A DNA stretch of 63,745 bases from a virus (IMGVR_UViG_3300046723_000060:1-63745), one strand, 5' to 3'. Shown: positions 2,517 through 51,282, counted from the stretch's first letter. A program made the numbers and translations. Notes: generated from the sequence alone by a model not told the origin.

Positions 2517-2921
2517 TTAGCTGCTCCCTATCACGTCATAACCTGTGGTTCCGTTGGCATACAAACGAACATATTGATATTGGTTAGACAAGTCCCACTC
2601 GGTCTGACCGTCGATCGTATCGGTACCTTGAGGGAAGATCTGCAGCGATCCCGCACCAGCATCTAGCTTCTTGACCACATATAGCTTTCCTTGAACAGAT
2701 GCCGAATCAGGTAAGGTGATAGGAATGTTCAGGCCAGAGGTCGTACCACGAATGACCATCTCAGGGTAAGGAGTGAAGGTAGCTAGGTAAGCTGAGCTAA
2801 CGTTAACCACTGCAACTCCACCCATGGTATTGATGATGTCGAGGTCAGCATTAAGCGTGGTCCCCCACGTATTAGCCGATCCCCCAACAGTTGGCTTAGT
2901 CAGCCCAAGTAAAGCGGTCAT
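2517..2921 (-). CDS. Small virion/tail-associated protein
   Basis: Likely ATG at 2921 overlapping the upstream stop; LGLTKPTVGG..WGTTLNADLDII and ITLP..VKKLD..TIDG motifs are common in tail-fibre modules. Confidence 0.55.
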   Translation of the reverse strand: MTALLGLTKPTVGGSANTWGTTLNADLDIINTMGGVAVVNVSSAYLATFTPYPEMVIRGTTSGLNIPITLPDSASVQGKLYVVKKLDAGAGSLQIFPQGTDTIDGQTEWDLSNQYQYVRLYANGTTGYDVIGSS

Positions 2922-5662
2922 TGGCACACTCCAGTTACACCGGATAATGTCACATTTCCAGTCATCTGGCACTTGGTAGTTATACCGTTACCACTTAAAG
3001 TTGCTACATGCGGACTACCTGAAGCATTGTCGGTTACGGTTACTGCCCCTGTCCTGCCACCTGTAGCCGTAGGGGTAAACGTAACGTTCAATGAACAAGT
3101 AGCCAGAGATGCCAACGTCCCTCCACAGTTGGTCACTGGAACGGTAACCACCGCAAAGTCTCCCGAAGCTACTACCGACGATATAGTCAGCGCACCGCTA
3201 CCTGTGTTGGTTAGGATAATCGACCTCACCGTCGAGGTTGTAGACAACGTCTGATCCCCAAAGTTCAGGCTGGTTGGATTGAGACTCACACCGGGAGTCT
3301 GTGCTACACCCGTACCTGAAAGCGTTACTACCTGCGGTGAGCCTGAAGCGTTATCTGAAACGGTAAGATTCGCACTGCGCGTACCGCCAGCAGTAGGTGT
3401 GAAGGTAATGTTGAACGTGCAATTCAGGCCAGATAATAGAAGTGAGGGACAATTATCAGTAAAGCTGAAATCCCCTGGATTAGCTCCCGTGGAGATGGAC
3501 TTGCCGCTAATGGTTACCGTGCCGCCAGGGCCGCTGGTATTGGTAAGCACATGAGCTTGACTAGCCGATGATGTGCCTACCGTCTGGTTGCCGAAGATAC
3601 GGGTCGCTGGCAACAAGGTAACTGTCAATGCTGCTGGAACAGTCAATGAAATTTCATTCGACTTAGCGCTCTCTTGTGCCGGCTGCCATGCTCCACCGTT
3701 ATTACCAGTACCAGATGTGGCGCTAGAGAAAGTGAAGGTCGAACCTGTCGGCTGGCCTGTCGAGGTAAACGTTCCGTTGAACAACGTATTGCCACCTATC
3801 GTCACCGTCGTTCCGCTTGCGAAGGTACAAGTAGCGGTACAGGTTACTGTCGCGGTCGTTCCGTTGCCCGTGATGCTCGAGACAATGCCTCCGATGTATG
3901 CTGTGACCACGTAGAAGTAGGTTCCATTGGCTGGAGTATCAGTTGTTGTGAGCGACGTCAGGCCAGACTTGACTACGCTGTAAGGGCCGCCATGAACCGT
4001 TCCGCGGTAAAGCGTGTAAGCCGTTGGAGTGGGAGACCCTGACGATGCCGTCCAGTTCAAACTCGCTGTACTGCCAGCTACCGAACCGTTTAGCCCTGTC
4101 GGTGCTGCCGGAGGAACAGGGCCTCCACCAGTGAACTGATAAGCTCCAGCCGTCCAGTTGGTTGGGGCTACGGGTCTCGCTACGCCAAGGTAGTCCACGT
4201 TGAGTGCTGTGATACCCAAGCTCGTAAGGTTAGTGCCCAGCAGAATAGCTGAGCTACCAGTCTGTGGCTGATACGGTGGAGAACTGGCTGCGTTCAGATT
4301 AGGATTGGCAATGGAAGAGTTAGCATCGAATCCGGTAGCTGAAGTCCATGCCGCAACCGTAGCAAATCCAGTGCCGCTAGGCCCCGCTCCGCTGAACATC
4401 ACATTCAGTCCAGTTAGGTTAAACAGTACGTTGAAATTACTGGTGGTAAGCGTCGTCCCTGGATTCACAAAGATTCCTGTAGGAACCGTAGAGATAATGT
4501 TGTTTTCTATGGTACAAGGCGAGTCGGTCTTGATGCCCGATTGTCCAAAGCCATTACCGAAGATTATGTTGCTGTAGATCTGCCCCAATGGAGCGGTATT
4601 GGTGCCACATCCAGTAATGTAACCGTTGCTAGGACCATTGCTGGTCGAACCGTTAATCATCAGGTTGTTGAATATCCTGACGTTCGACACCGTTCCGCCA
4701 TTCGGATCAATGAAGATATCTCCCGTTTGCCTGAATCCCCAGTCACCGTGAATCCAGTTGTCGAAGATATTGACCGCACCGGACTGCGTGCCACCAAAGC
4801 CTTGGAACACGAAGATTCCATTGTGATGGAACGTGTTGGTGGCAGTGGTATCATCCCAGTTCACCGCATCAAACATGTTGTTATGGGAAATCTCCATGGT
4901 GCCGGAGTTGGCCCCGGCATTCAGCGCCATGCGGATAGCGTGGTTGATCCGCGAACAGGTATTGTTGGTGATAACGTTATTGGTGTCCGTCGTGCCCTGC
5001 TGGAAATGAATGCAGCTATGCGTGTCGTGCATAGTGTTGTTCTGAACTACGTTGTTGGAACCGGCAAACTGGATGCCAATAGGATAGCTGCCAGATGTGA
5101 CGCAGCCATTCGTATCCGTGAAAGAAGTCCGCACGCACAGGTTATTGATGTGCCAGTTCTGGATGGTTACGTTGCTGCCATCGCTGTAGATAGCGCCTGA
5201 GTTCTGCTCGAAGGCTAGTCCGGTTCCGTTGGCGGTATTCTGGATGACACCGTTTACGCCACCGTCGATGACGATGAAGCTCTGATGATTGGTGATAGGC
5301 GAGCCGGTAAACGATCCCCATACAGGCGAGGTTAGGTTAGCTCCTGATTCAAACAGTAGTGTGATTGGGTGTCCGCTTGTTCCCGATCCTTGAAAGAAGA
5401 AGACGTCCTGTTCGTTCGCGGTACCCGTATAAGTACCGCAGAAATGAACGATGGTGTCAGGACCAATCTGAGTTGCTCCAGCACCCCACTTACCGGCAGC
5501 GTTGAATCCATTGGTACCATCATGCAGCGCATAGGCGTTGGCGCAAGAGGTTCCATCATTTGTTACCGTAGCGTTCTGCGCGTAGTAGATGTTAGCTATA
5601 GACGCCTTACTTGAAGCTGCTCCCACGAGCATCAGGGCTAGGACTATCAGTAATCGTCTCAT
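2918..5662 (-). CDS. Exported right-handed beta-helix protein with an FN3 domain and two Ig-like (ASH/choice-of-anchor D-like) domains; possible depolymerase or adhesin
   Basis: Signal peptide MRRLLIVLALMLVGAASSKA; Asn-rich beta-helix repeats; PAAPTGL..LNWTAS..YFYVVTA (FN3); two FG.QT..LTNT..CT/S..FTPTA.G.R...TV.DNASGSP domains. Confidence 0.75.
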   Translation of the reverse strand: MRRLLIVLALMLVGAASSKASIANIYYAQNATVTNDGTSCANAYALHDGTNGFNAAGKWGAGATQIGPDTIVHFCGTYTGTANEQDVFFFQGSGTSGHPITLLFESGANLTSPVWGSFTGSPITNHQSFIVIDGGVNGVIQNTANGTGLAFEQNSGAIYSDGSNVTIQNWHINNLCVRTSFTDTNGCVTSGSYPIGIQFAGSNNVVQNNTMHDTHSCIHFQQGTTDTNNVITNNTCSRINHAIRMALNAGANSGTMEISHNNMFDAVNWDDTTATNTFHHNGIFVFQGFGGTQSGAVNIFDNWIHGDWGFRQTGDIFIDPNGGTVSNVRIFNNLMINGSTSNGPSNGYITGCGTNTAPLGQIYSNIIFGNGFGQSGIKTDSPCTIENNIISTVPTGIFVNPGTTLTTSNFNVLFNLTGLNVMFSGAGPSGTGFATVAAWTSATGFDANSSIANPNLNAASSPPYQPQTGSSAILLGTNLTSLGITALNVDYLGVARPVAPTNWTAGAYQFTGGGPVPPAAPTGLNGSVAGSTASLNWTASSGSPTPTAYTLYRGTVHGGPYSVVKSGLTSLTTTDTPANGTYFYVVTAYIGGIVSSITGNGTTATVTCTATCTFASGTTVTIGGNTLFNGTFTSTGQPTGSTFTFSSATSGTGNNGGAWQPAQESAKSNEISLTVPAALTVTLLPATRIFGNQTVGTSSASQAHVLTNTSGPGGTVTISGKSISTGANPGDFSFTDNCPSLLLSGLNCTFNITFTPTAGGTRSANLTVSDNASGSPQVVTLSGTGVAQTPGVSLNPTSLNFGDQTLSTTSTVRSIILTNTGSGALTISSVVASGDFAVVTVPVTNCGGTLASLATCSLNVTFTPTATGGRTGAVTVTDNASGSPHVATLSGNGITTKCQMTGNVTLSGVTGVCQ

Positions 5663-16095: not shown

Positions 16096-17041
16096 GCCAT
16101 CCCCTACGACGGACCTCTTCCATAATTAGGCTGACGTCGTGCCGAGTGTATACCATAGGCATATAAGTTTCACTCTCTAAAATTGTAGGGGAGGCCCATG
16201 CGGAGGCCATTTTCTCTGAAAATGAGAGGTACATGCTCGAGCTGATCGAATTTCCCTCGGGCCGCCACCATATTCCTGTTGGTGTGCCCCGCAATGCAGA
16301 AATGATGCCCACTCCGGCCTGGTAGCTAATCACAAACTTAGCCCTGTCAGTGATGGCCCAGAGTTCACCTAGATTGGTCCGACCAATAACACTAGTCCAC
16401 CAGTCCTGACCTTTGAGCAAAGGTTCTAAGATTCCAGTGAAGTAGGCTAGGTCGTAGGAAGCGCCGACAACGAGGATGTGTAAGCCAAATTCATCATGGA
16501 CGCGCTTACCCAGTTCTACCCATTCTTGCGGAGTCCAGATAGGACCGCGGTTATGGCCTTCAACTGTATTGCCAGCGAGAGGGCCGGGATAGAATACGGC
16601 GTAGTCGCCAATCTTCTGGTGTACGTCAGCAGCATGGATACGTTCGATAGTTTCAATATGGAAATCCCTAAAGATGTTCCAGTTGATCTGGTATTGCGGT
16701 AGCCAGTTCTCTAAACGGATACCCTTTTCTAGCGGAGCATTAGGGATGAGTACGCAGTATTTCTCACCGTCGAATTCGTACATGCCGTCTTCAACGTAGT
16801 TGTACGTTCCGTCGGGATGAACGCGAGGACCATAGGCTTGGATAGAGAAAGGCTTCATATCCACTGAGTTTACGAAACGGAATCGTCTGACAAAGTCGAG
16901 AGCGCGGGAGTCAACTTTGTCCTTGGAGCCAACTAAAGAGACGTCGATTACGCCACCGGAATCTAACTTGTCACGGATAGCTTGAATCTTAGTTAACGCC
17001 CAGACTGAGTCGCCAATTCCTGTAGGTAACAAGAACTTCAC
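16055..17041 (-). CDS. Glycosyltransferase, GT9/heptosyltransferase-like
   Basis: GIGDSVW N-terminus; GRTNLGEL...AKFVISYQAG...GTPT motif. Confidence 0.75.
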   Translation of the reverse strand: MKFLLPTGIGDSVWALTKIQAIRDKLDSGGVIDVSLVGSKDKVDSRALDFVRRFRFVNSVDMKPFSIQAYGPRVHPDGTYNYVEDGMYEFDGEKYCVLIPNAPLEKGIRLENWLPQYQINWNIFRDFHIETIERIHAADVHQKIGDYAVFYPGPLAGNTVEGHNRGPIWTPQEWVELGKRVHDEFGLHILVVGASYDLAYFTGILEPLLKGQDWWTSVIGRTNLGELWAITDRAKFVISYQAGVGIISALRGTPTGIWWRPEGNSISSSMYLSFSEKMASAWASPTILESETYMPMVYTRHDVSLIMEEVRRRGWHETPIHSTAVPAG

Positions 17042-17661
17042 GGTCGCTCCTTAACCCTTGAGATGAGTATGCTCCCCGTCCAAGTATCCTCAAAGTATGC
17101 CCAATCTACTGACCCTGGACTCTTGCGATGCAATGCCGCAAAGGTAGCGGCTGAGACGACGGAATCTCTCGCATCGTCTACGAGGATCCACCTTGCGTTA
17201 GATCGCCATGCCAACAGAACGTCGTTATAAGCATCATCGTAGGAATGGCCACCATCTACATGAACAAGGTCAACCTGTGGCAGACGATCAATCTTGGTTG
17301 AGTCCGCTACACGGATTCTGCCTCTACTCCCTAGCAGATTGCCCACAAACTGAGAGGGAATAACCGGGAAGTCACGGTCTTGTTCGCAATCGTTATCTAT
17401 ACCTAGGTAGGTGGCGTTAGGACAGCCGTCAAGGAATGCTAGTGCGCTTATGCCTAAGCCAACACCAATCTCAATGATGCGTTCAGGCTGGATGACAAGA
17501 GCTACTTCACGTTTGAAGCACGCATAGCCTAGGCGGAACTTCTCCGTGTGAAAGAGTGGTGCTACTCCCATAGGTAAGTGAGGACGATGATCGTAGGTAG
17601 AAAGAGGATAGTTGTGACGGATATATTGGGCGTAGTCGGTTAGTTCTCCACCGAAGATCAT
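17038..17661 (-). CDS. Class I SAM methyltransferase (Methyltransf_24-like)
   Basis: IIEIGVGLG.S, DLVHVDGGHSY, ILVDD. Confidence 0.85.
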   Translation of the reverse strand: MIFGGELTDYAQYIRHNYPLSTYDHRPHLPMGVAPLFHTEKFRLGYACFKREVALVIQPERIIEIGVGLGISALAFLDGCPNATYLGIDNDCEQDRDFPVIPSQFVGNLLGSRGRIRVADSTKIDRLPQVDLVHVDGGHSYDDAYNDVLLAWRSNARWILVDDARDSVVSAATFAALHRKSPGSVDWAYFEDTWTGSILISRVKERP

Positions 17662-18167
17662 GTCTCATACACCCACATGGAGTGTTCGTGATGGACACCG
17701 GGTAGAAGCTCCTGTGTGGCTTGCATAATGGGACCGTGGCCGGCATCGTGACCGCAGAGCAAGCCCTTGCATAGAGGTTTCCATGCGAGGATGTCGGCTT
17801 TAACATTCTCATAATCGTGACTGGCATCGATGAAGACCATATCGAATGTATTTCCAGATAAGATTCTAGCTGCGTCCACCGATGCCATCCGTACTGGAAC
17901 CACTTTTAGGCTGGCGATATAAGGCTTCATGTTCTCGCAGAAGGCTTCATACAGACCGATAACCGGAGGGTTGTGTTCCTCGCTGCCTAGCCAGGTATCT
18001 ACGGCGAATACGTGGCCGTCAGTGTTGTCGGCTAGGCAAGTGGTAGAGCGGCCTTTCCAGCAGCCTACTTCTACGATGTTCTTGTGAGTAGCGGCTTTTT
18101 CAGCCAGCCAGCACAAATCATGGTCTTCCATCCACCCCTCAATCTTGAGAGCGTTCTCGATATTCAC
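17658..18167 (-). CDS. Class I SAM methyltransferase (Methyltransf_24-like)
   Basis: VEVGCWKGRST, FDMVFIDASHDYE, CGHD. Confidence 0.9.
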   Translation of the reverse strand: MNIENALKIEGWMEDHDLCWLAEKAATHKNIVEVGCWKGRSTTCLADNTDGHVFAVDTWLGSEEHNPPVIGLYEAFCENMKPYIASLKVVPVRMASVDAARILSGNTFDMVFIDASHDYENVKADILAWKPLCKGLLCGHDAGHGPIMQATQELLPGVHHEHSMWVYET

Positions 18168-29613: not shown

Positions 29614-31860
29614 TTAACGATACCTTTCCATCTGGTCTATTTCATACGCTAATTCGGACACCGTTGCAATCTCTCTTTGTTCCATATCCTTGGGTGAGAA
29701 CACGTTGGACGGTCTACTGGGCTGTAAGTTGAGTGGAGGTAAGGTTGAAGGGTTGACTGACCGCTTCTTACTTCTTGCGGCGATAGGTTCAAGGTCATGA
29801 GGACAGAAGCAGGCCATGGCGGCAGCAAAGACACGGTCATCGTGCTTGCCATCTTCGTGTTCGAGCTTCTCCCTGCCCGTGGCAGTAACTTTCGATTCAA
29901 AGGTTCGCATCTCTTCTAGCAGCCACGGTGAGTTGATGTGTAGCCATAAGTTCTTGGCGCAGGTAGCGAAGTAGGTGGTGAGCATCTGACGGGACCAGGT
30001 GCCGGAATACCACCCACGCTTGCGGGAGATGGCTTTGCTGCGTTGAGGGTTCTTGCCATCGTAACGGCTCATCATGTGGAAGTTAGAGTAGCCCAAACGG
30101 GCCATGTCCTTCTGGCACATATCGCCAACCGAGGCTAGTTGCTCGATACTTACGTAAGGCTCGCGCCAGCGAGTGCTCGATGGATCCATATGCGTCTTGT
30201 AGTAGGCGGCAATGCCTAAGACGAATGCGAAGGCTTCCGCATGGTTGATGTAAGAGCTAGATAGTTCGGCTACCTGAGTGTCAGGATCGTCGTCGTTCTT
30301 CCCGATAGCCCACACTGATATTGAGGTAGCGTCTTCGCCGCGGCCGGCTGCTGTATCTACGCCTATTGAGTATCTGACTCCAGGCTGAGGATGAGCCCAG
30401 ATGAAGAGTATTCCCGTAGCTGTGCCGGCATCCTTGGGATTAGGCTGGATTTGCTGCTCGAGCAAGGGTACCAGTTCCCAGCGGTAAGTCTCATCGCGCA
30501 GGTTAGTGTAACGGATGGGGATACGTTCCTTGTCGTAGTCGATATATTCTGTAGGTGGTTCGTGGTCGGCTTCTATCGATTGACCAACGATACAGAACAT
30601 GTCAAAGGTCTTCTCACGGCGTGTTTCAATCTCGGCTAATGTCTGGTGGCTGAAAGCGCTGGTGATAGACTTCTGCAAGGCTTCTTCATCGTCAGCGCAC
30701 ATTTCCTGATACCACTTGGCGGTGGTGCCGCCGCGCTTCGATTCTTCATGGCCAAACTCCCAGAACCATTGCTGTTCCCGTGGCATACGCCAGTAGAGGC
30801 CAGAATGTACGCCGCGGCGATGTTGATCTTCGACTAGATGCTTCTTTAAGAGTGGGTTTGAATCAACGTAGAGTTCGCACTTGGCAACGTGCTCGCGGGT
30901 GTCCTGGTTGGGATACCATCCTTCTGGGATAGGAAAGTCGTAGTTTATCCATTGCTGCTTGGGATACATCTCTACACCGCAGAACCATGGAAGGAATAGT
31001 GGGCAGTGACGAGCTTTGCGTAGATGCCAATAGTCGCGGGATGAACGCCAGCGGTCGGGCCACCATCCCTTATCACCTTCGCCGGAGGATTCTAGGGCGC
31101 CGAAGACGTTAGGTGAAGCGTGGACGGCGCGCAAGAGAGACGATTCAATCTGGTTCTCAGCGTCGGTGTAGGTTGCTACTTCGGATAGGTGATAGATGGT
31201 GGGAGTGGTGCCACGGGCGATACCAGACATCTGGGCGCCGTGCTGGAATGAGACTGAAGTCTGGCAGCCGCCGAAGCCCATTAGGCCGCGGTCAGATTCA
31301 ACCTTACGTGTAAGTTCAGGACGTAGCCAGACAGGCAGATATTCGTAGAAGAGACGAATCATCTTGGCCATTTCTGCGGTCTTGGTCTGGTCGGCGCTGC
31401 CAATAACAGCGTTTACGCCGTAACCGAAGACGATACGTAGTCCGATTAGGAGTTCAACGAGCGTAGACATGCCTAATTGCCGGGCTTTCAAGATGATGAA
31501 CTCTAGCGTTCTTCCAGAGGCTTCTAAGTCGGAGATGATGTTATAGAAGATTCGTTGAGGTACGCGGAAATTGAATCGGTGGATGGTTCCATCGTCATCT
31601 TTCAGGTACGCATAGCGGGTTAGAGCATAATCGGCGTCGCAACTGACCAGGAGTTGTTCGTTTAGGATCCAGTCATGCTCGAATTGAGTGAGGTTCTGAG
31701 TTCCCTTGGGAGCGCCGTTCTGGTCCAGTTCATACATGTTGTAGCGCTTGAGATGATCTTCAAAGGCTTGGACATCGGAAATGGAGTGTGGTTCGAGGGT
31801 TATCTTGAATTCACGTTGAGCTTCGTCGATACGTTGAGCGATGCGGGAGGGAGCGTACAT
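29614..31860 (-). CDS. terL: Terminase large subunit
   Basis: Walker A ILKARQLGMST, Walker B-like HLSEVA, nuclease motifs GVDTAAGRGED and HDDRVFA. Confidence 0.95.
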   Translation of the reverse strand: MYAPSRIAQRIDEAQREFKITLEPHSISDVQAFEDHLKRYNMYELDQNGAPKGTQNLTQFEHDWILNEQLLVSCDADYALTRYAYLKDDDGTIHRFNFRVPQRIFYNIISDLEASGRTLEFIILKARQLGMSTLVELLIGLRIVFGYGVNAVIGSADQTKTAEMAKMIRLFYEYLPVWLRPELTRKVESDRGLMGFGGCQTSVSFQHGAQMSGIARGTTPTIYHLSEVATYTDAENQIESSLLRAVHASPNVFGALESSGEGDKGWWPDRWRSSRDYWHLRKARHCPLFLPWFCGVEMYPKQQWINYDFPIPEGWYPNQDTREHVAKCELYVDSNPLLKKHLVEDQHRRGVHSGLYWRMPREQQWFWEFGHEESKRGGTTAKWYQEMCADDEEALQKSITSAFSHQTLAEIETRREKTFDMFCIVGQSIEADHEPPTEYIDYDKERIPIRYTNLRDETYRWELVPLLEQQIQPNPKDAGTATGILFIWAHPQPGVRYSIGVDTAAGRGEDATSISVWAIGKNDDDPDTQVAELSSSYINHAEAFAFVLGIAAYYKTHMDPSSTRWREPYVSIEQLASVGDMCQKDMARLGYSNFHMMSRYDGKNPQRSKAISRKRGWYSGTWSRQMLTTYFATCAKNLWLHINSPWLLEEMRTFESKVTATGREKLEHEDGKHDDRVFAAAMACFCPHDLEPIAARSKKRSVNPSTLPPLNLQPSRPSNVFSPKDMEQREIATVSELAYEIDQMERYR

Positions 31861-32498
31861 CAGGCTGATTTCCGTTGCTCTAGTATTCTCTCTGCGTAAT
31901 CGGCTACACAGTTGGCTAGTTCGGGGGGGATAGTCGCCGTTCGTGCAGCATCCGCTTTCTTCGAGCCTCCGAATTGAGCCATAACTTTCCTTCGTACAAT
32001 GTTCCGCTCTGAGCGCGGAAGATCATAAAATCCTTTTGGAAGAAATGACCCGCTTCCTCTCTGTAATTTCTTGATGCCTTGCACTAACAGTGGCGGTACT
32101 GCGTTTCCCCACAGATAGAATGGACCGCAGTGATGCTCAGCATTGCCAACGAACTGCTGTGCTGCTCGTACATTTTCCATTACATAGGGAACTCCACTCG
32201 CTTCGCACAGTTCTCTTGTATGGTTGAAAAGTTTTATACCCAACTCTGGATACTTCGGATTCGGGAAAAAATGCTTCATGCCGTGGACGCTGAATTGTTC
32301 ACAAGGGCTGCTCGCCACGATGAAATCAGCCTTATAATCGCGCAATGTCGTAAGCAGCAGAATATCCCATTGAATAAATGCACAGTTCTCTGGATTCTCT
32401 GGCGGGCGTTCCAGGTCAATTCCAATACACTCCCAGCCTCGCGCAGCAAAAGCTCGTGACCAACCCCAGCGTCCGCAGAATAGGTCAAGCAGCCTCAT
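31860..32498 (-). CDS. C5 cytosine DNA methyltransferase-like protein (short form)
   Basis: LLDLFCG..GWS (motif I), ASSPCEQFS (motif IV), MENV (motif VI). Confidence 0.75.
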   Translation of the reverse strand: MRLLDLFCGRWGWSRAFAARGWECIGIDLERPPENPENCAFIQWDILLLTTLRDYKADFIVASSPCEQFSVHGMKHFFPNPKYPELGIKLFNHTRELCEASGVPYVMENVRAAQQFVGNAEHHCGPFYLWGNAVPPLLVQGIKKLQRGSGSFLPKGFYDLPRSERNIVRRKVMAQFGGSKKADAARTATIPPELANCVADYAERILEQRKSA

Positions 32499-39089: not shown

Positions 39090-40675
39090 CAAACAAACAC
39101 AGAATCGTTTGCACTTGTAATCCGAAATGCTCAAGCGTGGAGTACTGTGACGGATGGAAGTGTGAGAATTGCAACAATATGGCACACCTAGACGGATTTC
39201 ATCCTTGCGACGAACACGGCCGCGAGATGGAACCAGTGGACGGATGGAATGGCTTATACGTGTGCGGTAGGTGCGCCAATGTCTACGAACAACGAACTGG
39301 CAAGCGTTATCTCACCACAGAAGATGTGGCAGCAGGGGTACGGGCAGGGCAGTAGAGGTAAGAGACGGTTAAGGAGGCAACCATGAGGTCGATACTGAAA
39401 GGATTCACTACGCAAGTAGAAGCAAACGCCTTTGGCAAAGAGCTGCCAAGGCCCACACTTAGATCGTGGCATATTAACCGTGAGAAGTCTGGACACATGC
39501 GCTACGTAGTTGCCACTGATACAGAAAGAGTTGCTAGCGTCTATACCGAATCAAATGCTCGTCTAATCGCAGCGGTGCCGGACCTTTTAGACTTAGTATG
39601 CGCCTTTGAAAGCTACTTGGAAGATAACAGTCAAAGCGAGCGGCGCCGTGCTCATTGCTTGGCAGAAATAAAGAATGTTCTCGACAAAGCTATAGGGTAG
39701 AGGCAGGGCAGTAGAGATAAGAGACGGTTAAGAACGATTTGACGGTTTAGGGAGGCAACCATGAGTACGATTGAGAAGGGGAAGTATATGCATACACCAG
39801 GGCCGTGGTTTGTAGGCACGGGATGGATAGGTGCCGGTGAGATCAGGGAAGGCCGTGTCATTGCTCGGGTGGATAACTACCCATACGGTGACAGTGAAGC
39901 TAACATCCGACTCTTAGCAGCGGCACCGGAGTTGCTGGAGGCTTTGCGGTCTGCAATTAAAGTACTGCGGTGGGCAGGTGGTAATGAAGAACGTGTCTAT
40001 GATGCAGCAGTGGCTGCAATCGCCAAAGCCGAGGGGCGACCATGAGATACGGAGGCAAGGAGGCAACCATGAATACGACAGTAGAACTGACACAAGAGCG
40101 AGTGAGCAACTATGTTGCAAGGGGAGGCGTGCGCTGTCCGTTCTGTGATAGCGAGGACGTGGGTGGAGGATTTATCTCCATTGAGCCGGGAGTGGCGACA
40201 CAGCTAGTAAATTGCTCTAGCTGCGACAAGGAATGGACAGATATTTATAAGTTGCATGACATTCAGGTGCAGTCATGAGATACGGAGGCTCGATCAGAGC
40301 GTACCAAGCTGGTGAACATGAGCTGGCAGACCTGCTAGCGGACGTAGACAGTGAGGATGTGCTGGTCTATATGCCGCATACGGACGATACGGGGGATATA
40401 CGGAGGCTGGCTGAGGCATGGGCACAAGAGGAGGGGTTGACGTCATGGGAGAACTGACATTATTCGTAGCACAATTTGAATCCTCAAACTTTGAGTTTGA
40501 AGGATTCGGAACCAGTGACAAGGCTGCCAGAAAATCCTTGTTACGTGTGCTACGGACGCATTGTAAGCAACGTGGTGCCAAACTGAAAGAGTTCTACTAT
40601 CCAGATGAAGTGTTCGTGCGTGAAGTACGGACAGGAGACGGATTTATAGACAAAGAGAAAATATGCGCGTCCTGA
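39086..40675 (+). other. Cluster of small early CDSs (39086-39355, 39383-39700, 39761-40045, 40069-40278, 40275-40457, 40445-40675)
   Basis: Cys-rich Zn-binding ORFs; two ORFs share N(A/I)RL(I/L)AA.P(D/E)LL. Confidence 0.65.
39343..39732 (+). repeat. 31-bp direct repeat (39343-39373 and 39702-39732) flanking gene 39383-39700
   Basis: GGCAGGGCAGTAGAG(G/A)TAAGAGACGGTTAAG, one mismatch. Confidence 0.9.
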
Positions 40676-41226
40676 TTGCATGTGAATTCAGCGGGATTGT
40701 GCGTGAGGCTTTCATTGAACGTGGACATAATGCTATGTCTGTCGATTTATTGGACAGCGAGCAATCAGGCCCGAATCATATCGTTGGAGATATATTAGAT
40801 TTCCTGTCGCGCACGCAGGTGAAATGGGATCTGATGATTGCGTTTCCACCTTGTACACACTTAGCAGTAAGTGGAGCCCGCTGGTTCAGTGGAAAACAGA
40901 TAGAGCAACGCAAGGCGCGAGGGTTCTTTCTGGATCTAATACATGCGAACGTGCCCCGTGTGGCGATAGAGAATCCCATTGGAATAATGAGCACGCAATA
41001 TCGCAAGCCGGATCAGATTATTCATCCTTGGCAGTTTGGACATGGAGAAACAAAGGCAACATGCCTGTGGCTTAAAGAGCTGCCCAGACTAGTACCTACA
41101 AACGTGGTGGAAGGACGTCATGCGCGGGTACACAGAGAGCCGCCGTCACCAGACAGATGGAAGAATCGCAGCAGGACTTATACAGGTATTGCTAAGGCAA
41201 TGGCTGAGCAATGGGGAGGATTGTGA
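40663..41226 (+). CDS. Phage cytosine DNA methyltransferase-like protein (short form)
   Basis: MRVLIACEFSG.VR.AF, AFPPCTHL, IENP.G, RS.TY.GIA.AMAEQWG. Confidence 0.8.
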   Translation: MRVLIACEFSGIVREAFIERGHNAMSVDLLDSEQSGPNHIVGDILDFLSRTQVKWDLMIAFPPCTHLAVSGARWFSGKQIEQRKARGFFLDLIHANVPRVAIENPIGIMSTQYRKPDQIIHPWQFGHGETKATCLWLKELPRLVPTNVVEGRHARVHREPPSPDRWKNRSRTYTGIAKAMAEQWGGL

Positions 41227-42909
41227 TGGGAAAACTAGGTATCGAGACGCAGGTTGAAGGCGATCGTGGCTCTACGGGGCTGGAAACGGCCTCTACGGGC
41301 CATCAGGACGCCTTCCAGGCATTGCTTGAGCATACCTACAGGCTCCTGAACCGGCCGGCACTGCATAGCCATCGCTGTTCTGTTTGCCATTTGGAGAGGA
41401 TCTGCTGCCAGCAACCGTGTACTTACAGGGCTACGGATCTGGAGCGGGATTACCGCTGCGGGTGTGAGGAGGCGCGATGAAAGTTGTGATAAATGCCTGT
41501 TACGGGGGATTCAGCCTATCACCGCGAGCGGTCAAGAGATTGGCAGAGCTAAATGGTAGAGAATGCTATTTCTTTACCTTCCAGCGTAATCCGCTAGACT
41601 TCGACATTCGTATTCCTGCGACAGTTGAAGAACTGGAACTGGAAAACGACAGGATTGGCATGTGGTCTGCCTTCGATATTCCTAACCCTAATGAGGTCAT
41701 TGGCAAAGCCTTCCGTGGAAAGGACGAATTTAACGAACGCTATAAGAAACACTCATTGCCCAATGATGGAGGCGTTGAACGTAACGATCCTAAACTCATT
41801 CAGGTAATCGAGGAATTAGGAGCTGGACACCGTACCGGAGCCAGCGGTCCTTGCGCGGACCTGCGTATCGTAGAGATTCCCGATGGTACAGACTACGAGA
41901 TTCAGGAATACGACGGACTTGAGCATGTGGCAGAGAGACATAGAACTTGGAGTTAAAGGAGGCATGATGAGCTATGACCCTAAGTGTGAGGAATTAGCAC
42001 TCTACTTTGCGCCTAAAGCTAAAGGGGAACGCCTTAAATATCTGTCACAGTTGATCCAGGACACCATTGAACAAGAAACCGGACCACATGCTCATGAGTG
42101 CCAGCAATGCGGGAAGGTTATGGAAGATGATTGTGATTGTGATAACCCTGACCGTATGACCTGGTGCTCCAGCTCCTGCAGGGAGGCATTTGACCTATGA
42201 AAGTCCTCATGTACGTCGGAGGTAACGCTCCTAGCCGCGATTCAGAACTGACTGTAAGTGGAGACTTCCACCACTTCACCGCCTATTACGCTCCCGGCTA
42301 TGACGTCTGCGAAGATCCTGAATGTGAGTGCCGGCAACGGATTATCACTGGCTCAGGCACTACGGAAGCTGAGGCCATTGCCGACTATTGGGAGAAGTGG
42401 GAGGACCAATGCCAGCCTTAACCAAGCAAGAGAAACGCGATCTCTGGCTCCATGCCGTCGATTGCGCGAATGAAGCCTTGAGTGGCAAGAATAAGGGCCG
42501 CACAGCCTATGAGGATGTGTACAAGCTGGTGGTGAAGGAATACTTGAAATGGAAGATGCAATCTCTAAAGGTCGAAGGGAGAGACTGAAATGTTAACTCT
42601 ATATCGCAAGACAATGGACTGGTTATATTGCCGATTGGGATTATATGCGCCAGAACGTTGTGTGTTTTGCGGGACGCATACGACCAGTGCTCTGCCATAC
42701 GAAGTGAATCAATATGGCTGGCCATGCTGCACGGATTGCGAGCCTATGCAATGAGCTACGATCCGAAATGCAGAGACTTAGCAGAGTATTTTCTGGCTGA
42801 TGAAGAACATTCGCAAGAAGAAGTCACATGGTTAGCGCAAGAGATACAGGATTCAATCGAACGTTGGTTTGAGCCGCGAGAATCAAGACCAAAAGATGTA
42901 ACGCCATGA
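41226..42909 (+). other. Cluster of small early CDSs (41226-41480, 41477-41956, 41967-42200, 42197-42421, 42409-42588, 42751-42909)
   Basis: 41477 has the common phage pattern KVVINACYGGF.LS..EYDG.E.V.E; 41967 and 42751 are paralogs (MSYDPKC..LA.YF). Confidence 0.6.
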
Positions 42910-42956
42910 GCAGCGCTGGTGGTGAAGCAGTATCTGAAGTGGAAACGGAAAGAAAT

Positions 42957-43712
42957 ATGATTTACGTAGCTTTTGGCGGGGGCATCAACTCAACAGCTAT
43001 GTTAGTAGGAATGTTACAGCGCGGATTTTGGCAACGTGCAATTTGGCCTAAATGGGTTGTTTTTGCCGATACAGGAGGAGAGAAACCGGAAACATATCGT
43101 CATGTGGATTTGGTAGAACAATGGCTTAAAGATACTGGAGATTTGGAACTCCATCGAGTTAAGAAGGATTCCATGTATGAAAGTCTGGAAGATGAGTGCT
43201 TGCGAAATAATACTCTCCCCGCGCTCGCATTCGGATGGCGATCTTGCTCTGACAAGTGGAAACAGGCTCCGCAGCAGAAGTTTATGAATCACGACGAACA
43301 GGCGAAGGAGATTTGGGCGTCTGGCGGCAAGATTATAAAGGCTATCGGCTTTGGCGTAGATGAGCTACATAGAGCCAAGCCTTATGAAGACGAAAAGTAC
43401 CGCAACTGGTATCCACTAATTGACTGGAAATGGAACCGAAACGATTGCATCGAAGCAATCAAGCGAGCAGGACTGCCAGTTCCACCTAAAAGTAGCTGTT
43501 TCTATTGTCCCGCTATGCGGAAGTCAGAGATTGTACAACTCTCGAAAGATAACCCCGCACTCTACGCTCGCGCTCTAGCGATGGAAGAAAACGCAACAGC
43601 GGCGCATACGATCAAGGGATTAGGCAGGTCATTTTCGTGGAAGGAATTAGTTGGGCCGGAAGTGATCGAACAAGTTTGCATGTGTTTTGATGGAGAGTGC
43701 AGCAGTATCTGA
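42957..43712 (+). CDS. PAPS reductase-family (adenine nucleotide alpha-hydrolase) protein
   Basis: AFGGGINSTAM PP-loop-like, FADTGGEKPETY, YPL, PPKSSCFYCP. Confidence 0.8.
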   Translation: MIYVAFGGGINSTAMLVGMLQRGFWQRAIWPKWVVFADTGGEKPETYRHVDLVEQWLKDTGDLELHRVKKDSMYESLEDECLRNNTLPALAFGWRSCSDKWKQAPQQKFMNHDEQAKEIWASGGKIIKAIGFGVDELHRAKPYEDEKYRNWYPLIDWKWNRNDCIEAIKRAGLPVPPKSSCFYCPAMRKSEIVQLSKDNPALYARALAMEENATAAHTIKGLGRSFSWKELVGPEVIEQVCMCFDGECSSI

Positions 43713-47458: not shown

Positions 47459-47853
47459 TTAAATTCGAGTTCTTCGTAGCAGGTGTCCCTCAAAGTAAGC
47501 AGTACAGACAAACTAAGTTTGGAGTCATTTACAGTAAGGGAAAAGTAGTCGCTTGGGAGAAAGCAATAGCCATGGCAGCGCTAGTAGCAGCGGGAGCAGG
47601 ATATAAGGCGGCAATAGGAGCGTGTTCGTTGTGGCTGGACTTCTACTTTCCTATCCCCAAGTCACGTAAGGAGCTTACACCCGGTATGCCGCACTTGCAG
47701 GACCCTGATACCACGAACTTGCTGAAGGCTGCCGAGGACGGCCTGAAACGAGTGTTGTTCGTGGATGACAACCTAGTGTGGAGAACGATGTGTAGTAAAG
47801 CGTGGTGTGAGGCGGGGAAAGAGGGAGTACAGGTAGTGGTGACCATAGAATGA
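47455..47853 (+). CDS. rusA: RusA-family Holliday junction resolvase
   Basis: G.PQSKQ, PDTTNLLKAAEDGL....FVDDNLV. Confidence 0.85.
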   Translation: MIKFEFFVAGVPQSKQYRQTKFGVIYSKGKVVAWEKAIAMAALVAAGAGYKAAIGACSLWLDFYFPIPKSRKELTPGMPHLQDPDTTNLLKAAEDGLKRVLFVDDNLVWRTMCSKAWCEAGKEGVQVVVTIE

Positions 47854-48716
47854 AAGAGATCAGAATATCCCCGAGTCAGCTCAAGACGTGGTCAACCTGC
47901 AAGGAATTGCACCGCATCGGCTATCTCTTGAAGAAGGAAGCTATAGAACCTTCGATTCACTATCAGTTTGGCTCAGTCATTCACAAGATGGCGGAAGGTT
48001 ACTGGTCTGGCCTACCGTACATGGAATCGTTCCACAACGCTCTCAAGGTAGCTCAGGAACTGGATATCCGGTTACTCAATGCTAAGGATCAGACTAAGTG
48101 GAGTAGCTTGCAGGATGCGATAGCGCCGATTACTACTATCTATTATGGGTATCACGCAGCTACAGCCGATGCTCATCCTCCAATTATGAATGAACAGACT
48201 ATTGAATGGGAATGGGGAGAATACGCCGGCGTCAAGGTGATCTGCAACGGAATCATCGACAGGCTGTCACACGATGGCAAGTTAATCGACACCAAGACCG
48301 CCTCGGCTGTTGGCTATACTTGGAAAGCTGATCTTAAAAAACGGTTGCTCCGTGAGCCTCAGATGGGTTTCTATCTACGGCATCTGTATCTAAACGAACC
48401 TGTCAAGCTCACTGGTATCGAATACGAAATCATCGTCAAGCCCTACCGCGGCTCTGATCCCCGTATCGAGACTATCGACGTTACCGACGAAGTGATGAGT
48501 TTCCAAGAAACATTCCGACAACAAATGGATTGGGCTATTCGTGAGATTTGCACGTTTTACGCAAACTGTCTTGAAGCACAACCTTGGCCGATGTCATCCA
48601 CAGCCTGTGTTGGAATGTTTGGTGAATGCAGCTACTTGCCAGTTTGTCTAGGGAAAACAACTCTCGACAATGAGAAACTTTATCGGATTAAGTTGGAAAA
48701 GGAGATTGAAGTTTGA
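47850..48716 (+). CDS. PD-(D/E)XK exonuclease, Cas4/AddB-like with a split Cys cluster
   Basis: ISPSQLKTWSTC, FGSVIH..AE, GIIDRL...LIDTKT, Q...Y, C-terminal AC......C.Y..VC. Confidence 0.85.
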   Translation: MKEIRISPSQLKTWSTCKELHRIGYLLKKEAIEPSIHYQFGSVIHKMAEGYWSGLPYMESFHNALKVAQELDIRLLNAKDQTKWSSLQDAIAPITTIYYGYHAATADAHPPIMNEQTIEWEWGEYAGVKVICNGIIDRLSHDGKLIDTKTASAVGYTWKADLKKRLLREPQMGFYLRHLYLNEPVKLTGIEYEIIVKPYRGSDPRIETIDVTDEVMSFQETFRQQMDWAIREICTFYANCLEAQPWPMSSTACVGMFGECSYLPVCLGKTTLDNEKLYRIKLEKEIEV

Positions 48717-48718
48717 TT

Positions 48719-49018
48719 GGTCAGGTCTGGTGTGGCTTGGTATGGTCAGGCCAGGCATGGAGAGGTTGGGTCTGATACGGCGTGGTAAGCAGAGGTTTGG
48801 TGCGGTGAGATAGGGAAAGCAATGGCAAGGCCGGGTCTGGTTAGGCTCGGCTTGGTCAGGCGAGGCGCGGTGCGGTTAGGCATGGCTAGGATTGGTCTGG
48901 TGCGGAACGGTAAGGTCAGGCGAGGACGGGCAAGGTGGTGCAAGCAGAGGTAAGGCGCCGCAGTGTTAGGCGGGACAAGGTGCGGTTCGGCAAGCTCAGG
49001 TAAGGCTAGGCATGGGAT
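48719..49018 (+). ncRNA. GGY-NN pentamer array (60 in-phase units); putative guide-RNA locus of VIPR type
   Basis: Exact 5-nt period over 300 bp with no indel; by hand 50/60 units start GG and 44/60 start GG(C/T); last two bases vary; fills the gap ahead of a RAMP-like gene. Confidence 0.8.
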
Positions 49019-49040
49019 TCTTTAAACGGAGGCAACCGAA

Positions 49041-49649
49041 ATGGCAACAACATTAGTTCCTGAACTGAACGCAGTGAGCAATGACGCAAAGTCGTCAATC
49101 GTCGAGCCCTACGTGGCCGAGGTTGACATCCAAGGTGTAACTGCGTTTCTGTTCCATCGTTGGTCGGTAGACGGAGTGGAAGCCAAGGCCAACGCGGCTA
49201 AGGGTAGTAAAGCTAAGAAGTCTGATGACATTGAGTCATATGTGTATCGACTGGACGATGGAAACTTAGCTATTCCATCAGAGTATCTACGGATGGCGAT
49301 TATCGGCGCTGCCAAGTTTAAGCAGGATCCTCGCTCGCCGCGCAAGAGTGCGATGGATTTGTTCAAGGCAGGACTGACATGCCTTGATGAACTGTGTGAC
49401 CTTGGAACCAAAGATTGGGATTACGTTGACCGCCGCAGAGTTCAAGTACAACGTAACGCGATTACCCGCTCGCGGCCTGCGCTAAAGGTGGGATGGAAGA
49501 TTTCAGTGCGGTTACAAGTACTCTTACCGGAGTACATTAATCCAGACATGTTGAATGATGCAGTACAGTCGGCTGGAAGATTGATTGGGATTGGTGACTT
49601 CCGTCCCACCTTTGGAAGGTATCAAGTCACTGGATTCAGGATTGAATAA
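49041..49649 (+). CDS. Stand-alone RAMP/Cas7-like protein; putative Vipr-type RNA-guided effector
   Basis: First strand VDIQGVTAFLFH; AIPSEYLRMAIIGAA (RAMP IP.S.LKG-like helix); thumb-like DRRRVQVQRNAITRSRP; C-terminal Gly-rich loop AGRLIGIGDFRPTFGRYQV. Confidence 0.75.
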   Translation: MATTLVPELNAVSNDAKSSIVEPYVAEVDIQGVTAFLFHRWSVDGVEAKANAAKGSKAKKSDDIESYVYRLDDGNLAIPSEYLRMAIIGAAKFKQDPRSPRKSAMDLFKAGLTCLDELCDLGTKDWDYVDRRRVQVQRNAITRSRPALKVGWKISVRLQVLLPEYINPDMLNDAVQSAGRLIGIGDFRPTFGRYQVTGFRIE

Positions 49650-49688
49650 ACGAGTTTACGGCCCTCGACCGTATCGAGGTAAAAGGAG

Positions 49689-50435
49689 ATGAACATGAAC
49701 GAGACACAGCTGGATCTGGCACAACAACTGAAGGCTGAGTTTGAGAAGAATGAGCCTAAGCCTGCACCTAATCAGGCCATCCTGGAGTTACAGAAGCAGG
49801 CTACTCAAGTTCAGCAAGAATCCAAGATGAAACAGTGGTCGGGACTCTCCGGTTACAGCTATCAGGAGATTGGCATCGTCAAGATGGCTGAGCTGTATTA
49901 CTCCATGAACTGGGGCTGGACGGTACCGCAATCTATCCTTATGGCTATCCACTGTGCCAAGTTTGATTACAAAGTAGACCCGGCTGAAGGGCATGTCTAT
50001 ATGACACCAGCTGGGAGAATTGGAACCTCACTTGAGGGCTTGAAGATCAAATCTGAACACAAGGGAATGAAGATCGGGCATCCCAAGTTTGATGAAGTTA
50101 CTCGGCCTTGGCCACAAGGTAAGTTTCTGCAAGTAAAAGGTCAAGACAGGATTAAGCGCGAAGCTACTATGGAACAGGACCAAGGAGTGAAATGCACGCT
50201 GGTTATAAACGATGAGCCCATAGAATACACAGCTTGGGCCAGCGAGTGGATGGTTGGTACCAATCCTAACTGGGTAGAGAAGCCTATGCACATGTTGAGA
50301 GTCAGAGCTGAAATGCACTGCATCAAGTTTGCTACTGGGATAGGAGTGAGTGAAGAGTTGGTTGATTCCGTACCTTCTACTGAGCCCGTCAGGCAGGAGC
50401 CTAAAGCTCCCAAGGAAACTCCGTTTGTGAGGTAG
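49689..50435 (+). CDS. RecT/Bet-like single-strand annealing protein
   Basis: VDPAEGHVY, TSLEGL, W.EKPMHMLRVRAE.HCIKFA.G resembles the Redbeta/RecT C-terminal motif. Confidence 0.65.
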   Translation: MNMNETQLDLAQQLKAEFEKNEPKPAPNQAILELQKQATQVQQESKMKQWSGLSGYSYQEIGIVKMAELYYSMNWGWTVPQSILMAIHCAKFDYKVDPAEGHVYMTPAGRIGTSLEGLKIKSEHKGMKIGHPKFDEVTRPWPQGKFLQVKGQDRIKREATMEQDQGVKCTLVINDEPIEYTAWASEWMVGTNPNWVEKPMHMLRVRAEMHCIKFATGIGVSEELVDSVPSTEPVRQEPKAPKETPFVR

Positions 50436-50437
50436 TT

Positions 50438-50644
50438 ATGGACGACTGGAAGGCCAAAGTACTGCTCTGGAAGCTGCAGCAGGAGGCTAACGAGAAGGAA
50501 AAGCAGGCTGACCTGTTTCCTCCTGATGAGAAGAAGAAGTTAGAGAAGGCTGATCGTATAGCCGAACTACAGCGTAACGCCCGTAACAAAGTTCCGCCTA
50601 AGCCGCCGCAAGTTGACGACGATGGCAACGAGATCCCCTTTTAG
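50438..50644 (+). CDS. Small protein with an SSB-like acidic tail
   Basis: Ends in DDDGNEIPF. Confidence 0.55.
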   Translation: MDDWKAKVLLWKLQQEANEKEKQADLFPPDEKKKLEKADRIAELQRNARNKVPPKPPQVDDDGNEIPF

Positions 50645-50679
50645 GGATAACGAACACATATAAATATAAGGAGACTCAA

Positions 50680-51282
50680 ATGTCTGAAGCAGCTGCAACA
50701 CAGAAAGCTAGTAGGTTCGCAGGATTCGAGCAGGAGGAGCGTAAGCGTTGGGACGATGGTTGGTACAGCGGAGTGATTGTTGCCGAGTATGAGACGTCGG
50801 GCAACTTCGCTACCGTACATAAGACTCAGGACGTTCCGTCTACCGCTGGTGACAGCCGGAACTTGAAGCTGTGCGTGATGGTGGTCAACGGTAACGATAC
50901 CAAAAGTCTTAATACGACCATCAACTACCGGCCGGAGGCGTTGGAAGCTGAGCGCATGGAGGACTTGCGTGTGCGTAAGGCCGCTAAGGAACAGTTCAAA
51001 GGAGCGGACTTCCGTGACTCCATGAGCTTGAGTAAGTTCCACGAGCTCGAACGTGCCGGCATCCCTATTGAGGATAACGGCCATGGCGGGTTTGATGTGG
51101 ACAAGATGCTGGGTATTGCTGCGGACTTCTATCTTGGTACCAGGGTGAAGAAGAGTAAAGATAGCAAGGACGATCGTGCGGTAACCGATGCGGAGAAGAA
51201 GTCGGCTACCGATGAGGAGCGTAAGGGTTGGTATCACAAGATCACGCAGATAGCCTACGTTGACAGCAAGGTTAAAAGATAA
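50680..51282 (+). CDS. Hypothetical protein, possible ssDNA-binding protein
   Basis: DGWYSGVIV start; located in the recombination module. Confidence 0.45.
   Translation: MSEAAATQKASRFAGFEQEERKRWDDGWYSGVIVAEYETSGNFATVHKTQDVPSTAGDSRNLKLCVMVVNGNDTKSLNTTINYRPEALEAERMEDLRVRKAAKEQFKGADFRDSMSLSKFHELERAGIPIEDNGHGGFDVDKMLGIAADFYLGTRVKKSKDSKDDRAVTDAEKKSATDEERKGWYHKITQIAYVDSKVKR

Follow-up and report, generated by a model that had tools for sequence, protein, structure and literature searches.

A phage-borne GGY-NN pentamer array directly upstream of a stand-alone Cas7-like gene, a probable minimal VIPR locus

The window (the whole 63,745-nt stretch of DNA analysed here) carries on its + strand a repeat array of 60 in-phase GGY-NN pentamers, 300 nt in length (48719..49018). 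It is followed by a 22-nt linker (49019..49040, +; TCTTTAAACGGAGGCAACCGAA) that separates the last unit from an ATG, and by the gene opened by that ATG, which encodes a 202-amino-acid protein identified by profile homology and AF2 fold as a stand-alone Cas7-like RAMP (49041..49649, +) and named vipr below. The distance of 22 nt between array and gene, claimed in the original prediction on which this analysis builds, was recovered from the sequence. Upstream of the array lies a PD-(D/E)XK exonuclease gene (47850..48716, +; Pfam PF12705, 1.6e-14; exonuclease in PHROGs), the stop codon of which is 2 nt before the array start. Downstream of vipr, a 248-amino-acid gene (49689..50435, +) encodes a putative RecT/Red-beta-like single-strand annealing protein, assigned from an Atlas lead and from its predicted fold. 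The source is an uncultured tailed phage, the record containing genes for a portal, a large terminase, a major head protein and an SU10-type adaptor. Among cultured phages, the closest large terminase comes from Tunturiibacter phages, at 32.9% identity, and no tRNAs were found in the record. Cellular homologues of the 202-residue protein, with 56–57% identity, come from Tepidimonas, Thermomonas and Caldimonas. Two DNA sequencing runs are listed with the record (shares of 0.08 and 0.05), and no RNA run is listed.

A parse of 48719–49018 reproduced every number first given for the array: 60 pentamers in one phase, 50 of them starting with GG and 44 with GGY, with variable fourth and fifth positions. 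G is found at position 1 in 57 units and at position 2 in 53, whereas position 3 is a pyrimidine in 51 of the 60 (T 29, C 22, A 8, G 1). All four bases are used at position 4 (A 20, G 16, C 12, T 12) and at position 5 (A 27, T 16, C 10, G 7). The longest stretches of clean units are 1–11 and 22–44, the latter comprising 23 units. The degenerate units (12, 15, 19, 21, 45, 46, 49, 50, 52 and 56) are mostly of the form G-H-N-N-N, and part of the array may have decayed, since GG is no longer present in ten of the 60. The phase is nevertheless unbroken over 300 nt, with zero indels, which argues for continuing selection. The units are also not homogenised, in agreement with the earlier view that this is not a slipping microsatellite.

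The periodicity is far outside what the rest of the phage offers. When the other 300-nt segments of the window (n = 12,448) were scored in their best phase for GG or CC at period 5, the count was at most 14 (mean 6.9), compared with 50 in the array, and composition-matched shuffles of the array itself (n = 2000) reached a mean of 15.2 and a maximum of 22. The signal is strand-specific: the in-phase maximum on the minus strand (CC) anywhere in the record is 12. Tandem Repeats Finder made no call over the array, as expected because three of the five pentamer positions vary. The variable bases have no higher-order periodicity at lags 1–35 (best lag 22, uncorrected p 0.0135), and the fold z-score is −2.05, with no evident terminal structure.

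The 202-residue ORF had no match in Pfam, NCBIfam or PADLOC, and its only match in PHROGs was phrog_4652, of unknown function. In a set of 5.8 billion sequences, 6995 of the 7066 scored candidates were homologues at E ≤ 1e-3, and an exhaustive search yielded 1283 cluster representatives of the Vipr family. A family profile built from 65 sequences (A1) matched the PDB chain 36pp_D, ‘SUSP1 Vipr protein’, over near full length (profile 32–203, chain 5–189; E 3.7e-17, 65.9 bits) and, when run against the SUSP1 genome, recovered vipr at E 2.5e-19. The residues reported to contact GGY in SUSP1 Vipr are H17, R138, D177, W178 and R179 (10.64898/2026.04.26.720927). In the HMM alignment, these positions correspond to H39, R145, D186, F187 and R188 of the window's protein. 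Four of the five putative contact residues are thus identical in the aligned sequences and the fifth is a conservative change (W178 to F187), and R145, D186 and R188 are each at least 90% conserved across A1.

The AF2 model of the protein (pLDDT 93.0, pTM 0.84) returned 121 PDB matches in Foldseek at E ≤ 0.001, the top ones being Csm3, type VII Cas7 and Cas7-11 (best E 1.5e-6, TM 0.46–0.56). In VIA-align, 28 chains reached Z ≥ 8, among them Cmr-beta (6s6b_I; Z 11.6, r.m.s.d. 3.6, 155 aligned), 9g9a_D (Z 11.3) and 6ae2_B (Z 11.2). The top fold matches, Csm3, Cmr4 and Cas7 (Z 11.6–9.8), cover residues ~20–202, and without exception the best matches in structure are backbone RAMPs of CRISPR systems. 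The DSSP string of the model includes a β-hairpin at 128–148, which contains R145, and a loop at 183–193 (GIGDFRPTFGR); residues 183–194 of the ORF read GIGDFRPTFGRY. By alignment to SUSP1, we read the model as a predicted RRM core in which the hairpin at ~128–148 is the thumb and the loop at 183–193 is the G-loop. The gene had been described from its sequence as RAMP-like, with a C-terminal G-rich loop, and the structural matches bear this out. The 202-residue ORF thus encodes a Vipr protein.

The first description of VIPR (Viral Interference Programmable Repeat) systems, published in 2026, presented them as CRISPR-like, RNA-guided DNA silencers (10.64898/2026.04.26.720920). Vipr is described as binding vrRNAs composed of GGY/NN repeats, the NN bases of which pair with dsDNA, with one base skipped per unit, resulting in repression of transcription (10.64898/2026.04.26.720920). 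The natural targets given are satellites, prophages and rival VIPR loci, and seven types are distinguished by the architecture of the array and by the accessory vap gene (10.64898/2026.04.26.720920). The minimal working effector consists of one upstream vrRNA and the vipr coding sequence (10.64898/2026.04.26.720920). A follow-up has shown phage–satellite competition involving VIPR (10.64898/2026.10.15.759431), and 99 VIPR-like clusters with a period of 5 emerged from a survey with a language model (10.64898/2026.10.21.760802).

If array and gene form a functional unit, the two should occur together in other genomes, and the original prediction had named neighbouring GGY arrays beside homologues as a point to check. 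We compared 24 viral, 53 metagenomic and 5 genomic loci and one named phage, with homologues of 49–97% identity, and called an array where at least eight in-phase GG occurred on the same strand; pentamer position 3 was not selected on. A same-strand array is present next to the gene in 21 of the 24 viral loci, and in 45 of the 49 distinct loci that extend for 300 nt or more in both directions (34 upstream, 23 downstream). Arrays occur at a density of 1.56 per kb in the interval from −700 to +900 nt around vipr and of 0.020 per kb per strand in the remainder of these loci, an enrichment of ~78-fold. Across 2532 units, position 3 is C or T in 86% and positions 4 and 5 have an entropy of 1.98 bits each, giving a clade logo of G.95, G.86, Y.86, N, N. 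The window's 60-unit single-phase array is the longest among the loci examined, the longest in relatives having 52, 51, 50 and 47 units. Two loci (L015 and L017) carry a tail-less upstream array together with five separate tailed vrRNAs downstream, so that tail-less and tailed forms coexist in the clade.

The surroundings of the gene are much less constant. The 248-residue protein downstream has an Atlas lead of 0.96, with 30 of 30 matches in the RecT set. Its AF2 model is of medium confidence (pLDDT 71), with lambda Red-beta as top fold (7ujl_A; Foldseek E 1.3e-3, Z 7.9) and RecT as second (7ub2_E; E 1.9e-3, Z 7.0), and searches for a PDB sequence match and for Pfam or PHROGs families returned nothing. 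It is best read, from the predicted structure, as a RecT/Red-beta-type annealing protein. Exonuclease and annealase flank vipr, placing the VIPR cassette inside a phage exonuclease–annealase recombination module. The exonuclease next to vipr is common only to L084, L132 and L135, and the RecT/Red-beta-like gene is absent beside vipr in the other loci. More generally, the neighbours of the window's vipr are common to none of the 24 viral loci and are not common to 50 of the 53 metagenome loci. There is no conserved vap, no neighbour family occurring in more than 9 of 72 loci (blastp, 1e-8), and no vrRNAs were found downstream of the window's vipr. No cas genes were detected by Pfam on 65 ORFs or by PADLOC on 4 ORFs, and a tandem-repeat scan of the whole record (63.7 kb) found no CRISPR array, with four short unrelated rows in its output; the lack of both had been noted from the start.

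We conclude that the locus is very probably a minimal VIPR system, consisting of vipr and a vrRNA array. The VIPR-type identity proposed at the outset is upheld by the homology to the solved SUSP1 Vipr, by the Cas7 fold and by the arrays at 45 of 49 loci. The locus is a further member of the already published VIPR kind, and its architecture alone does not establish a separate variant. The missing vap does not exclude membership, because loci are described as only ‘typically’ having one and some hits as stand-alone genes (10.64898/2026.04.26.720920). A viral or proviral carrier, as in the window, is likewise usual for VIPR without being obligatory.

The published VIPR mechanism matches the one that the original prediction put forward, in which each Cas7-like subunit grips one GGY and displays NN and the NN string acts as a gapped guide, for example against rival phages, and by homology it would apply at the window's locus. 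The array would be transcribed from the + strand, probably together with the operon around it. Each pentamer would then be bound by one Vipr protomer, with its GGY sequestered and its NN presented, and a string of NN from ~9–16 or more units would pair with dsDNA, skipping one base per unit. The resulting filament may block transcription of a competing mobile element, be it another phage, a prophage or a satellite. Transcription, filament formation, the 1-nt skip, silencing and the kind of target are what we infer for this locus from its published relatives.

Close relatives show how such an array changes. Three soil contigs (L084, L132 and L135) belong to a close phage relative; their Vipr proteins are 94–97% identical to the window's (L084, 95%), and upstream of vipr they have the same exonuclease and RusA genes. 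Their arrays are mutually identical and have 21 units each, making the window's array 39 units longer. Only its last 11 units can be aligned to L084, the remainder being unrelated. Within the aligned units, 11 of 55 bases differ, divided 1/0/4/3/3 over positions 1/2/3/4/5, and the vipr DNA of the two is 84% identical, with 79 of the 97 differences at third codon positions. These differences indicate that GG is held fixed while positions 3–5 drift at about the silent rate, and the comparison as a whole indicates that the 5′ part of the array was replaced wholesale, in multiples of five bases. Units 10–14, the degenerate GATAC among them, agree at 22 of 23 nt with the 3′ end of the upstream array of another locus, L098; array content is otherwise not common to more distant loci.

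The boundary between array and gene is short and recurrent. A GGAGG ribosome-binding site at 49028–49032 lies 8 nt before the ATG and ~9–10 nt past the last unit. The linker also carries a T-rich end motif, found repeatedly in the clade where an upstream array stops (end consensus GGCAA GG(A/T)TT TTT in the 43–45 upstream arrays of relatives tabulated), and in L084, L132 and L135 the linker is kept with a 1-nt indel. No structured 3′ tail follows the repeat tract, only 22 nt being available before the ATG; the absence of a tail argues against a type II architecture, not against VIPR. Rfam returned no family, hammerhead included, in 47500–51000 at E ≤ 1. A search of 48300–49800 gave 0 sites for a sigma-70-like promoter or an intrinsic terminator, although the promoter type of the host may differ from the sigma-70-like model.

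This arrangement invites the most serious alternative, namely that the tail-less upstream array is mainly a cis-regulatory 5′ leader, on which a Vipr filament would cover the ribosome-binding site and thereby autoregulate or buffer Vipr; the locus would then remain part of VIPR biology, with another function. An array with 22 nt between its end and the ATG, and 9 nt between its end and GGAGG, is well placed for such a role, as are the upstream arrays of 45 distinct relatives, which end 5–83 nt before the start codon and in 29 cases within 30 nt. No promoter or terminator was detected between array and gene, and the combination in L015 and L017 of tail-less upstream with tailed downstream arrays suggests two role classes. 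However, the upstream vrRNA1 of SUSP1 is reported to be a working, reprogrammable guide (10.64898/2026.04.26.720920). Moreover, the entropy of positions 4 and 5 approaches its maximum and their bases do not repeat, neither of which a mere binding platform would need, and the turnover of the array between 95%-identical relatives is as expected of arms-race guides. We consider a mainly regulatory array improbable. The guide role and the leader role are not mutually exclusive.

A second and markedly less probable explanation is a partly decayed or accreted relic, made of former vrRNAs fused by recombination, with only part of the blocks still functional and the degenerate units left over from old array ends. 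The ten units without GG, the match of units 10–14 to 22 of 23 nt of the L098 array end and the presence of only 21 units in the nearest relatives would fit such a history. The phase kept over 300 nt without an indel speaks against it, and the single-phase arrays of 52, 51, 50 and 47 units in relatives show that long arrays are a habit of the clade. That there is no guide system at all, and that a microsatellite, a G-quadruplex tract or a repetitive coding region lies beside an unrelated gene by chance, can practically be dismissed: with 45% G (134 of 300 bases) and GG every 5 nt the tract could in principle form two-tetrad quadruplexes, and short ORFs of 47, 43 and 65 amino acids overlap it, but the ~78-fold association with Vipr homologues (arrays at 45 of 49 loci), the strand specificity, the pyrimidine preference at position 3, a 5-nt period incompatible with a reading frame and the lack of homogenisation all speak against it.

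With the array taken as a guide, its NN string can be searched for targets. According to the published rule, a target reads NN-x-NN-x, one base being skipped per unit. Sliding blocks of 9–16 units were compared with the phage itself, the 24 viral loci and 54 further loci, and the best scores equalled the maxima of shuffled guides. Exact 8-unit seeds in viral_contigs gave at least 121 matches for units 1–8, 44 for units 22–29, 20 for units 47–54, 15 for units 37–44, 14 for units 30–37 and 9 each for units 10–17 and 26–33. Under exact matching, with no mismatch allowed, the longest extension of a seed was 10 contiguous units, in one contig family each. One such match, of units 21–30, is found in L029, L055 and L065 at one homologous site, and the other, of units 1–10, at one site in L157, L167 and L208; in both, the skipped base is not at the wobble position. 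Both were rejected because the chance expectation was estimated at ~0.5 per seed. An exact 10-unit seed (units 24–33) had 0 matches in genome_contigs. The composition of the NN string fits codon positions 1–2 better than 2–3 or 3–1, and none of the three beats a uniform model. These searches thus identified no natural target; one may lie outside the data that they covered.

VIPR is a newly described way of recognising DNA programmably and has been proposed as an ancestor of CRISPR backbones. The window's locus leaves the known mechanism unchanged and adds a confirmed environmental member to a very large Vipr clade, for which two components, a protein and an array, seem to suffice. The arrays of this clade can be continuous and as long as 60 units, placed directly on the vipr leader. 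The locus is therefore a compact test case for the delimitation of guides without a tail, a ribozyme or a spacer, and for the gain and loss of units, with 21 versus 60 units at 95%-identical Vipr. A more speculative proposal, which we regard as unlikely although less so than any of the alternatives above, is that the long leader-fused array of this vap-less clade constitutes a distinct class of vrRNA without fixed boundaries, the filament of which also throttles vipr translation. In that case, nucleation anywhere on the 60 units would give overlapping guides, or footprints with gapped recognition of up to ~180 bp, and the length of the array (21 versus 60 units) would tune both the guide repertoire and the dose of Vipr.

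Among known systems, the closest in kind is the type II system of Escherichia phage SUSP1, with vrRNA1–4 and vap1 (10.64898/2026.04.26.720920, 10.64898/2026.04.26.720927 and 10.64898/2026.10.15.759431). Both have a stand-alone Vipr of ~200 residues with an RRM core, a thumb and a G-loop (GDW/FRPxFGRF), and in both, GGY-NN pentamer RNA genes lie on the same strand, one of them directly upstream of vipr. Both are phage-borne, with neither cas genes nor a CRISPR array. Homology between the two proteins is remote, being picked up by the profile but not by tblastn at 1e-5. The array architectures also differ. The upstream guide of SUSP1 has a clean 12 units and ends ~100 nt before vipr, whereas the window has 60 units ending at 22 nt; the downstream runs of SUSP1 are broken, with ~9–16 units, whereas the window has one continuous array. 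Each SUSP1 vrRNA carries a tail of ~40–50 nt, described as a pseudoknot (10.64898/2026.04.26.720920), whereas the window's array is tail-less. Downstream, SUSP1 has a 149-residue vap1 and three more vrRNAs, and the window has neither vap nor downstream vrRNAs. The clean block of 23 units in the window also exceeds the published 9–16.

The two-part layout of the window, an upstream array and vipr, is the same as that of the published minimal effector. The other architectures reported for VIPR (types I and III–VII) comprise staggered overlapping vrRNAs, hammerhead-interspersed arrays and single vrRNAs (10.64898/2026.04.26.720920). The window's array may belong to the staggered class, which the legend of fig. 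S18 of that source describes as continuous, the end of one vrRNA starting the next.

The Cas7 backbones of Class 1 CRISPR systems (Csm3, Cmr4, type VII Cas7 and Cas7-11) resemble the window's Vipr in fold, in the G-rich loop and in the thumb hairpin, and polymerise on guide RNA at a fixed period, although sequence identity between Vipr and these proteins is only 8–16%. Unlike the Class 1 systems, the window has no partner Cas proteins, no CRISPR repeats, no Cas6 and no Cas5, and its array has a period of 5 nt rather than 6 nt. Published VIPR systems further differ from Class 1 in that two of every five guide bases pair, the target is dsDNA and one base is skipped per unit.

The upstream arrays of relatives share a common end, with the consensus GGCAA GG(A/T)TT TTT at the ends of 43–45 arrays, and a ribosome-binding site lies within 10–25 nt past it. 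The window version of this end (49004–49036) reads GGCAT GGGAT TCTTTAAACGGAGG. The conserved end could be a 3′-end signal or a translation leader, both putative. Within the window array, units 10–14 (48764–48788) are identical at 22 of 23 nt to positions 274–296 of L098, a locus fetched for comparison, including the degenerate unit GATAC, a pentamer that lacks GG. As this segment of L098 lies at the 3′ end of its upstream array, degenerate units within the window array may be leftovers of earlier array ends.

Two classes of vrRNA, the GGY-NN guide RNA, are found within a single locus in L015 (3639–5023) and L017 (2297–3641), both of which encode Vipr homologues. The upstream array is tail-less in both (32 and 28 units, respectively) and abuts the start of vipr. 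Five separate guides, 12–19 units long, lie downstream of vipr, and a conserved, hairpin-containing tail of 50 nt comes after each of them.

A Vipr homologue with 53% identity is encoded by a cultured-lake phage, Phage DSL-LC04 (OR003939.1; L083, locus 2680–3618), in which it is annotated as a ‘helix-turn-helix transcriptional regulator’, probably a mis-annotation. The unannotated 320-nt gap upstream of the gene is filled by a GGY-NN array; as read from the sequence, this array includes a long inverted repeat and has a small hairpin plus a T-run at its end. Homologues with 56–57% identity are also present in five cellular genomes (L311–L315: Tepidimonas, two Thermomonas, a Caldimonas MAG and a Proteobacteria MAG). 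Four of these loci carry two upstream arrays of 12 units each, and L315, on a short contig, carries one. Because the five loci are syntenic with the viral loci L004, L006 and L014, they seem to represent a single prophage lineage that occurs in both Betaproteobacteria and Gammaproteobacteria.

The window phage also carries several DNA-modification-type genes (17038–18167, 31860–32498, 40663–41226 and 42906–43712): two Methyltransf_24 ORFs, a C5-cytosine methylase fragment, a PAPS-reductase-like gene and a phrog_757 DNA methyltransferase (E = 1e-68).

Directly downstream of vipr lies a RecT/Red-beta-like annealase gene (49689–50435), which shares just 47% identity with the corresponding gene of L084 (1121–1870), a soil contig of a close phage relative, whereas the flanking genes are 91–95% identical (Vipr 95%, orf68 91% and orf200 94%). 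On this pattern, the annealase gene appears to have undergone a mosaic swap. On the other side of the locus is a PD-(D/E)XK exonuclease gene (Pfam PF12705; 47850–48716), the adjacency of which to vipr is limited to the phage lineage of the window. The exonuclease ends in a cysteine-rich stretch, C..C......C.....C, which, judged by eye, we take to be reminiscent of the iron–sulfur cluster in Cas4/AddB-type nucleases.
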